Shown: positions 1-2,144 of the stretch, piece by piece
Layout: each line of letters opens with the position of its first letter
Position numbering within the stretch: the first letter of the stretch is position 1
From: Escherichia coli
GTDB lineage: Bacteria > Pseudomonadota > Gammaproteobacteria > Enterobacterales > Enterobacteriaceae
Reading direction: 5' to 3' (one strand)
DNA length: 2,144 nt
Assembly: GCF_003334385.1 (NCBI RefSeq)
Contig: NZ_QOWN01000102.1
Position numbers and translations under genes: made by a program
Notes under the pieces: generated by a model
The model's database searches: none
What the model was told of the DNA's origin: nothing
Seen by the model: the letters and a program-made list of their open reading frames with translations, nothing else

Positions 1-1
1 A

Positions 2-415
2 GCGGTGAGTGCGGAGAGTGAGGCATGGCTTGCGCAGTGCGGGCTGACGGCGGAACAGATGGCCGCGCAGATGGAGGCGGAATACATCCCGGAGAGGAAA
101 CTTCATCTTTACCACTGTGACCACCGGGGACTGCCGCAGGCGCTTATCAGCCCGGAAGGGGAAACGGCGTGGTGCGGGGAGTATGACGAATGGGGAAACC
201 TGCTGGGCGAAACCAGTGCGCAGCACCTTCAACAGTCACTCCGTCTGCCGGGGCAGCAGTATGATGAGGAGTCGGGGCTGTACTATAACCGGAACCGGTA
301 CTACGATCCGTTGCAGGGACGCTATATCACCCAGGATCCCATTGGGCTGAAGGGGGGATGGAACCTGTATGCGTATCCGCTGAACCCGGTGCAGCGGGGG
401 GATCCTCTTGGGTTG
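2..415 (+). other. Conserved Rhs core C-terminal segment (last YD repeat and PxxxxDPxGL-type core-end motif)
   Basis: Translation ends with [18 protein letters not shown] (DPIGL = nt 335-349) and [13 protein letters not shown] (DPLGL = nt 401-415). Sequence upstream of this point is the conserved GC-rich core; downstream is divergent. Confidence 0.88.
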
Positions 416-1153
416 TCTGGTGAGACACTGGTTCTTGGTTCTGCCACAACAGTAACAGGAACAAAATTTGGGGGGGCGTTACTTTCGGGTGGGGCGGCGA
501 CTTTTGATGCAGTCACGACGGCTATGGCGTCTGCTGCCCCTGCTCTTGGAGCAATGGCTGTGGTCGCTGGGCCAATGGGATATGACCTTCTCGCTAATGA
601 TGGGCGTGCCGGGAAGGCTCTGAGCGATGGGCAGTTAATAAATTCTCAGGCTGAAATGTGTTACTGGACCAGTAGTTGTCCTTTAGATAGCCCACATGAG
701 AATGATAATTCGTCAGGGAGTCAGCCGAATGTTGGGAAGGATTTGACGGATGAAGAGAAGAACTGCCTGGCCGGCGGCAGTACGGGAAGCCCGGGAGGAT
801 GGGGACCAGAAGATGAGAATAGCGCAAGGGATCGTATGCAGCATGAACGGTATAAAGATGAATTGCGACAGAAAATGGGAAAACCCGACGTTACAGATTC
901 AAATTTGAAAAATATTATAGACGATCTTTATCGGCCAAATGCAAAAGTAGGAAGTGGAAGCACAGCAGATGCTGTTCGTTATGAATTGGCCACAGGTGAA
1001 AAAGTTGGTGGTAGAGGACATGTATTGAAAGCACAGGATTATACAAGGGCTTTACAGGATTGGTTGGATAAGAATCCAACAGCATCTCCAGGGGATCGAG
1101 CAGCAGCAGAAAACGTTCTTCAGGATTTACAGAATGCTTTGGGAGGCAAGTAA
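2..1153 (+). CDS. rhs: Rhs family polymorphic toxin, C-terminal portion (5'-truncated by window edge): end of conserved core plus variable CT toxin region
   Basis: Open frame from the window edge to TAA at 1151-1153, with no in-frame stop upstream, so the GTG at 5 is not the real start. The translation carries the conserved Rhs core C-terminus (..[54 protein letters not shown]), which I recognise from E. coli-type Rhs proteins. Hand-counted GC on the first 60 nt is about 65%, dropping to the low 40s after about nt 660. Confidence 0.92.
416..1150 (+). other. Rhs variable C-terminal (CT) toxin region, family unassigned; N-terminal Gly/Ala-rich hydrophobic part and polar, charged C-terminal part
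   Basis: It lies immediately after DPLGL, where Rhs proteins carry their polymorphic toxin domains. Composition changes within it: codons 142-197 are Gly/Ala/Thr/Val-rich, while codons ~275-382 are rich in D/E/K/R. An immunity-like small ORF follows directly. Confidence 0.75.
1141..1146 (+). promoter_or_regulatory. Shine-Dalgarno (GGGAGG) for the immunity ORF, embedded in the 3' end of rhs
   Basis: GGGAGG at 1141-1146 with 6-nt spacing to ATG 1153. Confidence 0.55.
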
Positions 1154-1530
1154 TGAACCAATATATTGCTAGTTATATAGAAAAAATGGCATCATTTTCC
1201 ACTGTTTTGTCTGAGACAGTCTCATTAGCTAATGAATACTGGCATCCAGAAACGCCACCGGTGGTTATGTTGTTCTCTCAGGTTGGAAAAACGATTGTAA
1301 AAAATTTTTATGAAATGGGGGATATTGAAAGAGAAAAAATATTTAAACATGTCGAAGATGGTATGGTCTCGCTTGATGATGAATTGGCCACAGTTGTAGC
1401 TACAGGGCTTATAGAGGCAATAGTCACTGCGACCGATAGCAATTCTTTACTTTGGCAAGATGTAAGTAAATTTCTGGGTGACAAATCAAAGTCTCATGCA
1501 TTAGTGTGGAAAAATTTTGGTCAGGAGTGA
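1153..1530 (+). CDS. Putative cognate immunity protein for the Rhs CT toxin (125 aa, acidic, family unassigned)
   Basis: ATG at 1153-1155 overlaps the rhs TAA (1151-1153) by one base. A GGGAGG Shine-Dalgarno at 1141-1146 sits 6 nt upstream of the ATG. Hand-counted GC on sample lines is about 33-45%, matching the AT-rich distal CT. Size and position fit the usual Rhs-CT/immunity gene arrangement. Stop is TGA at 1528-1530. Confidence 0.72.
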   Translation: MNQYIASYIEKMASFSTVLSETVSLANEYWHPETPPVVMLFSQVGKTIVKNFYEMGDIEREKIFKHVEDGMVSLDDELATVVATGLIEAIVTATDSNSLLWQDVSKFLGDKSKSHALVWKNFGQE

Positions 1531-1536
1531 TATTAT

Positions 1537-1580
1537 TCAAGAAGTATTAAGCTCGCTATTGAGATCTTAATGCTTCTTGA
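1537..1580. repeat. Imperfect palindrome / predicted hairpin 7 nt downstream of the immunity stop codon
   Basis: TCAAGAAGTATTAAG (1537-1551) pairs with CTTAATGCTTCTTGA (1566-1580) over 15 positions; one of these is T/G (a mismatch in DNA, a wobble pair in RNA). Three more pairs, CTC 1552-1554 with GAG 1561-1563, follow a 2-nt bulge, leaving a 6-nt loop GCTATT. There is no U-tract after it. Confidence 0.5.
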
Positions 1581-1985
1581 GATTAAATTAAAGTTAGGAC
1601 GAAGTAATTGCAGGTGGAAATAAATCCATGGTGACGTGTGGCAATGGCTATTAGATGTTATGGTGTGATGGGTTTTGGTGATTTAAGAGCTAAGTTAGAT
1701 TGCCTTATGAAAAAGTATGGTTATATATTTAATGATGTGTATCATATATTTAAATAAAAAACGGTTCTCTCTTGTCAAGATAGTAATAGGATAGATTATT
1801 GTGTTGATAAATATAATTAAGAGTCTACTTTGTTGATTTTAGAAGACTTTGGAGCAGGGAAAGAACATCAGAAGTACACTTTTTGTACTAAATAATTCGC
1901 GGTAAATGTTCAATAATTGAGATATTCCTTATTACCTAAAACTATTTTTCATAGCTTATACATGATCAAATACTCCTTACATAAT

Positions 1986-1993
1986 TAAGGAGA
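1986..1993 (+). promoter_or_regulatory. Shine-Dalgarno (TAAGGAGA) for the transposase ORF
   Basis: AAGGAGA at 1987-1993, 5 nt upstream of ATG 1999. Confidence 0.6.
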
Positions 1994-1998
1994 ACAAA

Positions 1999-2144
1999 AT
2001 GGAACTTAAAAAATTGATGGAACATATTTCTATTATCCCCGATTACAGACAAGCCAGGAAAGTGGAACATAAATTGTCAGATATTCTACTGTTGACTATT
2101 TGTGCCGTTATTTCTGGTGCAGAAGGTTGGGAAGATATAGAGGA
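1999..2144 (+). CDS. ISAs1-family transposase (H-repeat-associated protein; YhhI/YdcC/YbfD-like), N-terminal 48 codons, 3'-truncated by window edge
   Basis: Translation [48 protein letters not shown] matches, from memory, the conserved N-terminus of the H-repeat (ISAs1 family) transposases found beside rhs loci in E. coli. A strong RBS precedes it. The ORF track omitted it because there is no stop inside the window. Confidence 0.85.

Follow-up and report, generated by a model that had tools for sequence, protein, structure and literature searches.

Does the fall in GC content along the 3′ end of an Escherichia coli rhs gene mark the places at which DNA of different histories was joined, and where do these places lie? 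We examined this question in a stretch of 2,144 nt (contig NZ_QOWN01000102.1 of the RefSeq assembly GCF_003334385.1), referred to here as the window. Many E. coli chromosomes contain it at 100% identity, and it forms the 3′ end of an ordinary Rhs polymorphic-toxin element of this species, located in the T6SS-1/aspV island (T6SS, type VI secretion system). An earlier annotation made from the letters of the window (the sequence-only reading) had taken the fall for the sign of one horizontally acquired C-terminal (CT) toxin/immunity cassette on a conserved rhs core. Our best explanation, which as a whole we consider very probable, is an Rhs tip end made of segments of separate history that were installed at two conserved sequences, each compositional step being a boundary between such segments. 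All on the plus strand, the proposed order would be the Rhs core to nt 415, a pre-toxin segment (nt 416–724), a linker (nt 725–817), the toxin domain (nt 818–1153), a putative immunity gene (nt 1153–1530), a decayed gene (nt 1638–1853) and the insertion sequence ISEc1 from nt 1854. That a GC-rich core carries an AT-rich exchangeable tip is already a known property of Rhs elements, and both this contrast and the displacement of C-termini have been described (Jackson et al. 2009, PMC2935791). The points added here are the positions of the junctions (nt 412–415 and 776–817), a two-tier modularity with a linker of the contact-dependent inhibition (CDI) type, and a reinterpretation of the spacer. 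Loci used for comparison are referred to as L001 to L011.

The rhs open reading frame (ORF) enters from the left edge of the window and stops at nt 1153. Its first 137 residues, corresponding to the 3′ end of the Rhs YD-repeat core (nt 2–415), match positions 1126–1261 of the 1261 positions of NCBIfam RHS_core (NF041261) with 267.6 bits; the window holds only the end of the core. TIGR03696 (Rhs_assc_core, 84.6 bits against a cut-off of 32.5), Pfam RHS (E = 5e-14) and the RefSeq annotation agree, and the RHS_core and TIGR03696 matches both stop at residue 137, that is at nt 415. The last 10 of these residues (nt 386–415) form the PxxxxDPxGL motif, including DPLGL. This motif marks where core and CT meet; the first recombination junction lies here as well, and autoproteolysis presumably takes place at it. 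The motif has been described as the demarcation of variable Rhs tips, and tips are known to be shared between Rhs and CdiA proteins (PMC3150448).

Comparison with 5426 complete E. coli genomes placed the end of core homology at the same motif. Some part of the window, the rhs core and/or ISEc1, was matched in 5339 of them. With nt 1–700 as the query, 3857 genomes matched, and the partial matches to other rhs cores all ended at nt 358–412, never beyond nt 415; nt 416–1530, on the other hand, were found at ≥80% coverage in only 126 genomes (~2%). Thus, the tip is a variable module on a widely common core, as in the published model of C-terminal displacement (PMC2935791). This agrees with the proposal that the CT and immunity region differs in origin from the core and is swapped at the core end, and related rhs loci do not all carry identical CT/immunity modules, as the tip occurs in 126 genomes and the core in thousands.

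Composition gave a related picture. The GC values counted by hand on 60-nt lines in the sequence-only reading were reproduced on recomputation (0.65 at nt 1–60, 0.533 at 601–660, 0.433 at 661–720, 0.417 at 841–900, 0.233 at 1741–1800 and 0.317 at 1801–1860); inside the immunity ORF, for which 33–45% had been given, overlapping 60-nt lines span the slightly wider range of 0.32–0.50. The GC content of 60-nt lines falls with position (Spearman rho −0.86, p = 5e-11); by region, the core has 0.61, the CT 0.49, the immunity gene 0.37 and the spacer 0.30. The fall is real but it is not a monotonic staircase, since a dip to 0.43 at nt 661–720 is followed by a rebound to 0.57 at nt 721–840. This GC-rich island is the conserved linker and not noise, and the step in raw GC comes after it: the best change point of raw GC is nt 850, with 0.573 before and 0.352 after (permutation p ~0.003), in keeping with the claim that the main drop lies within the rhs ORF, 3′ of DPLGL.

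A likelihood scan for change points in the GC content of third codon positions (GC3) placed the largest step elsewhere, at the DPLGL codons (best nt 401, range 395–416; permutation p ≤ 0.001), with a second, weaker step at nt 842–890 (p ~0.03). Across the two change points GC3 goes from 0.74 to 0.44 to 0.23. By segment, it is 0.725 in the core, 0.41 at nt 416–649, 0.53 at nt 749–838, 0.26 at nt 839–1150 and 0.31 in the downstream ORF. The early CT had been said to stay GC-rich through its Gly/Ala codons, and indeed GC1 is 0.65 and GC2 0.59 at nt 416–649, where GC3 is low. As a correction for amino-acid content, synonymous codons were resampled with the usage of the full 1231-codon rhs core, which leads one to expect a GC3 of ~0.75 in every segment. 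The observed value fits in the core part (0.725, z −0.9) and falls far short at nt 416–727 (0.40, z −8.9), at nt 839–1150 (0.26, z −12.2) and in the immunity ORF (0.31, z −11.3); codon usage is therefore not uniform after the correction, the deviations outside the core being z −9 to −12. The composition step at DPLGL is repeated in L003 and L005, two further Rhs genes of E. coli whose tips are unrelated.

It could be asked which side of this step is the foreign one. GC and GC3 are 0.63 and 0.75 in the core but 0.54 and 0.61 in eight housekeeping genes from its flanks, and the rhs core is thus compositionally non-native too. A reading in which the GC-rich core was imported next to a low-GC tip of more native composition draws on this difference and fits the classical composite view of Rhs elements with an atypical core. 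We regard it as unlikely, since the tip and the immunity gene deviate even more from housekeeping codon usage, in the direction opposite to that of the core (z −6 to −7), and since it is the core that occurs in thousands of genomes, while the tip occurs in ~2%. Both core and tip are atypical, and the foreign-core reading complements the explanation by segments of separate history but does not replace it.

The second junction lies inside the tip. Directly after DPLGL, the pre-toxin sub-domain (nt 416–724, here called variant A) is rich in Gly, Ala, Ser and Thr and moderately hydrophobic, with hydropathy windows that reach 1.6, a hydrophobic stretch and a cysteine pair (CYWTSSC); its GC is 0.53 and its GC3 0.40. 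It has no Pfam match, and a word-indexed search for its homologues returned only 7 short E. coli fragments. It is followed by a conserved inter-domain linker of 31 aa (nt 725–817), the GC-rich island of the tip (GC ~0.56–0.59, GC3 0.54). When the whole tip was modelled with AlphaFold2 (AF2), the pre-toxin segment and the linker had predicted local distance difference test (pLDDT) scores below 50 (35–47 over residues 1–130), although the alignment was shallow and disorder is not separable from this effect.

Searching with nt 416–1530 yielded three kinds of partial matches, namely nt 416–817 alone at 98.8% identity, nt 701/728–1530 alone at 97–98% identity, and a short stretch of ~80–110 nt (about nt 701–816) at 80–83% identity in hundreds of genomes. 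Individual alleles explain this pattern. L002 has an identical variant A and linker, then another toxin and another downstream ORF of 85 aa; L003 and L004 have an unrelated segment after DPLGL, variant B, with a clear hydrophobic helix, then the same linker and the toxin and immunity gene of the window. In an orphan of 150 aa (WP_000960005/6) located directly after ISAs1 copies, part of variant B is joined through the linker to a third toxin, and in the L011 orphan part of variant A precedes the linker and toxin 4. The pairings seen are A with toxins 1, 2 and 4, B with toxin 1 and B′ with toxin 3. Among alleles with different toxins the linker is common, at 80–100% nucleotide identity, and all toxins diverge at nt 818, the first codon past GPEDE.

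In a site-by-site comparison, identity with L002 covers nt −52 to 781, and identity with the L011 orphan extends to nt 817 (L011 2541–2887 is 100% identical to nt 471–817 of the window). From nt 776 onward it is L003 that the window equals, nt 829 being the single mismatch; the match to L003 and L004 runs to about nt 1608. The window is thus recombinant relative to the sampled alleles, which places the crossover within the 42-nt block (nt 776–817) that is identical in both parental allele classes. Hence, of the single CT/immunity cassette proposed before, exchange at the core end stands, while the CT is not one module: two exchangeable parts are joined by a linker.

Core-less orphan tips were also noticed in other loci (L011 2541–2887, L005 2812–3264, L006 2785–3237 and L002 5548–6000). 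Each starts within the pre-toxin segment, immediately past the right end of an ISAs1 copy, and the pre-toxin segment and linker are their sole homology with a main rhs gene.

For the wider distribution of the linker, a profile built from eight of its sequences was compared with 1.84 billion cluster representatives, and 147 proteins were found at E ≤ 0.001, 85 of them at E ≤ 1e-10. In the 68 hits with ≥70 residues past the linker, the tails sort into 21 clusters unrelated to one another, and the heads into at least 9. A Pfam scan of 83 linker carriers detected the CdiA PT-VENN domain in 24–27 and RHS domains in 1–2, and nearly none of their tails has a Pfam family. Going by these matches, the motif is mainly a feature of CdiA C-terminal regions, which are modular, with an entry domain, then a flexible linker, then a toxin (PMC9424206, PMC11630599; 2026 preprint). 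For the Rhs tip, we found no paper on such an architecture of sub-domain, linker and toxin, within an incomplete coverage of the literature. It is conceivable, though we lean against it, that the Rhs tip is built as a CdiA-CT and that the linker, which CDI toxins (type V) and Rhs toxins (type VI) of Enterobacterales have in common, would be a second recombination joint, independent of the delivery system. One may also speculate that, once released, the tip is helped across the inner membrane of the target cell by the hydrophobic, Gly/Ala-rich pre-toxin segment.

The toxin domain (nt 818–1153, 111 aa and the stop codon; GC 0.42, GC3 0.26) belongs to an unclassified family. No match was obtained in Pfam, NCBIfam, PADLOC, a phmmer search of PDB or a profile search of PDB, and its AF2 model is all-alpha, with five helices and a pLDDT of 88. 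Homologues are found at the C-termini of Rhs, VENN/CdiA, PT-TG, Hint, CpnT-like and T7SS-type proteins, in Proteobacteria, Actinobacteria, Planctomycetes, Bdellovibrio and Firmicutes, with conserved Y43, R44, GSGSTA (residues 50–55), R59, E61, H73 and K76. The toxin might have a cytoplasmic target, which is our guess from its conserved Arg, Glu, His and Lys residues and because it weakly resembles CdiA-CT(UPEC536), a helical tRNase; it does not match the Ntox28 (PF15605) family profile.

The putative immunity gene (nt 1153–1530, 125 aa, GC 0.37) starts with an ATG that overlaps the rhs stop (TAATG). Its product matches Pfam DUF7674 (PF24722) weakly (i-E 0.0011, 19.4 bits, model positions 17–104 of 111). 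The same neighbourhood recurs elsewhere: in a CdiA orphan array (L008), in a metagenomic contig (L009) and in an Rhs array (L010), a distant homologue of the toxin has a DUF7674 gene directly behind it, and an overlap of 1 nt between that gene and the toxin stop, like in the window, is seen in L008 and L010. One of these neighbours matches the family at E ≤ 1e-5, and the neighbours align with the window protein over the conserved LF..G, VATGLIEA, FLG and W motifs. The toxin homologue of the L008 orphan has 67% identity; the linker is present there too, and the DUF7674 immunity gene is likewise AT-rich (0.38), in a different host. As the DUF7674 gene lies directly 3′ of toxin homologues in all three loci, the toxin–immunity pair is a unit that is co-inherited across carriers and taxa.

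A direct repeat of 18 nt, of which 17 agree (ATGAATTGGCCACAG[G/T]TG), was observed at nt 981–998 in the toxin (YELATGE) and nt 1379–1396 in the immunity gene (DELATVV); its rough chance expectation is ~0.002 under uniform base composition. In L008 (1–12573), a CdiA (PT-VENN) locus is followed by a long orphan toxin/immunity array with families including Imm42, Tox-HNH-EHHH and CdiI_N, and two SymE_toxin genes lie on the opposite strand among these orphans.

Downstream of the immunity gene, the low-GC spacer (nt 1741–1860) is AT-rich as had been noted, but it is not a plain spacer, being made of the remnant of a decayed gene and the left end of ISEc1. At the nucleotide level, the remnant (nt 1638–1853) is 83% identical to the initial 214 nt of a 119-aa coding sequence that is intact in L011 (WP_000020701.1, L011 4000–4359) and for which no Pfam or PADLOC match was found. 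It comprises the N-terminal ~72 codons with two in-frame stops and is cut by ISEc1, and it may be a former immunity or orphan gene.

Could such decay have made the whole right side of the window AT-rich, rather than a foreign origin? The pseudogene with its two stops and 23–32% GC is truly decayed, and the rhs gene is truncated in two genomes described below. The toxin and immunity ORFs, however, are intact, 96–98% conserved between alleles and keep their motifs across phyla, and the L008 immunity homologue is AT-rich in a different host as well. We thus rejected decay as the only cause of the gradient, and mutational pseudogenisation is a very improbable account of it.

The left end of ISEc1 (ISAs1 family, the classical H-rpt) occupies nt 1854–2144, with the transposase ATG at nt 1999. 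Similarity to ISEc1/ISAs1 copies starts at nt 1848–1856, with 91–96% identity in ~5300 genomes, and the boundary is sharp, at about nt 1854/1855. NCBIfam ISAs1 matches the 48 transposase aa inside the window weakly (E = 0.0017), and RefSeq annotates an ISEc1 transposase. In the variant-B alleles L003 (3905–3932) and L004, ISEc1 is joined at about nt 1608, and nt 1609–1853 (~245 nt), including the remnant, are missing; this nearer join is either an IS-adjacent deletion or an independent insertion of the element.

That ISEc1 and the DNA it brought are behind the low-GC right half is scarcely credible. Its own GC is 0.25–0.36 and orphan tips elsewhere begin directly after ISAs1 copies, yet the drop starts 1000–1400 nt upstream of the sharp IS boundary, and the toxin–immunity pair occurs without any IS in L008–L010, with the L008 immunity gene keeping a similar composition; ISEc1 was therefore rejected as the only cause of the gradient. 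The remaining idea, that amino-acid content and protein-level selection produced the gradient with no separate origin of the tip, can appeal to the raw GC of 0.53–0.56 that Gly and Ala sustain for 400 nt past DPLGL, but as the only cause it is refuted by the GC3 drop at the motif, where resampling with core usage predicts 0.76, and by homology with other rhs loci that stops at the same point, so that we give it practically no weight.

Returning to the explanation by segments of separate history, new tips would be installed through homologous recombination at the core end or at the linker, with the crossover of this allele falling within nt 776–817. According to established Rhs biology, the core would form a YD-repeat shell that encloses the tip, and the tip would be freed by autoproteolysis at DPLGL. 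The Rhs protein would be delivered on VgrG by the T6SS, killing non-immune neighbours, and the immunity protein, made from the translationally coupled gene, would protect the producer.

Several points weigh against this explanation or limit it. The crossover interval is defined relative to the sampled alleles, and the direction of exchange is not readable from them. The second GC3 step is modestly significant (p ~0.03). No donor was identified, and the cassette is nearly absent from PLSDB plasmids, so that no transfer vehicle was found; composition, a patchy distribution and homologues in other taxa, rather than an observed transfer, are thus what speaks for horizontal acquisition. Finally, in the two genomes inspected that carry the window at 100% identity (L001, 6093–13153, and L007, 2728–10153), the toxin is probably not delivered, as the rhs gene is truncated and the T6SS degraded.

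In these two genomes, vgrG (tssI), hcp and tssM lie upstream of rhs, and the island adjoins tRNA-Asp; tssM, tssI, tssJ and tagH are all partial. An IS1 is inserted in their T6SS-1 cluster, which is degraded, and the rhs coding sequence is annotated without its N-terminus in both. Because of this truncation and degradation, their rhs copy may serve only as an immunity/orphan reservoir. The gene order given by RefSeq is tssI/vgrG, the RHS core protein, a 125-aa hypothetical protein, the ISEc1 transposase and yafV. Over nt 1–1700 of the window, G exceeds C on the plus strand nearly throughout, and the cumulative GC skew climbs to ~10 and flattens only within ISEc1. Rfam, promoter and terminator scans and repeat searches gave nothing relevant to the compositional finding.

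Like the RhsA–H composites (PMC2935791), the locus has a YD-repeat core that ends in PxxxxDPxGL, a sharp step between core and tip, a small downstream ORF and an ISAs1 (H-rpt) element; one core is found with different tips by strain, and displaced orphan tips lie downstream. Unlike in the displacement model, which relies on core homology, the window also uses a second junction inside the tip, and the orphans of L011, L005 and L006 have no core and start in the pre-toxin segment right after an ISAs1 copy. The bipartite tip, of which both the N-terminal part and the toxin are exchangeable, resembles CdiA-CT/CdiI systems (PMC9424206, PMC11630599, PMC3150448), and the linker motif of the window is present in many VENN-containing CdiA fragments. 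It differs from CdiA-CT in that the carrier is an Rhs/T6SS protein with DPLGL and that the window protein has no PT-VENN match in Pfam; moreover, its N-terminal part is low-complexity, Gly/Ala-rich and unfolded in the AF2 model, and not a demonstrated helical entry domain.

Another parallel comes from Salmonella, in which, according to work by Koskiniemi and colleagues in 2014, orphan Rhs toxin/immunity modules are reportedly activated by recombination. Here, as in those modules, silent tip/immunity pairs lie downstream and have a stretch of homology to the main gene, onto which they could be recombined. The shared homology here, unlike there, is the pre-toxin segment and linker and not the core, and recombination onto the main gene is a possibility only.

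For polymorphic toxin genes, these results mean that composition alone can find module boundaries, with raw GC and GC3 setting the main step at different ones (nt 850 and nt 401, respectively), and with the middle plateau and the GC-rich island matching a separately exchanged pre-toxin segment and a linker common with CDI toxins. If the linker were indeed a general joint, toxin–immunity pairs could switch carriers without touching the core or the VENN junction, and core-less orphans would be reloadable. It would then explain the presence of the same toxin–immunity pair on Rhs and CdiA carriers, as well as the existence of orphan tips without core homology. It would also provide a sequence handle for cataloguing toxins, with at least 21 unrelated tail families, most of them without a Pfam family.

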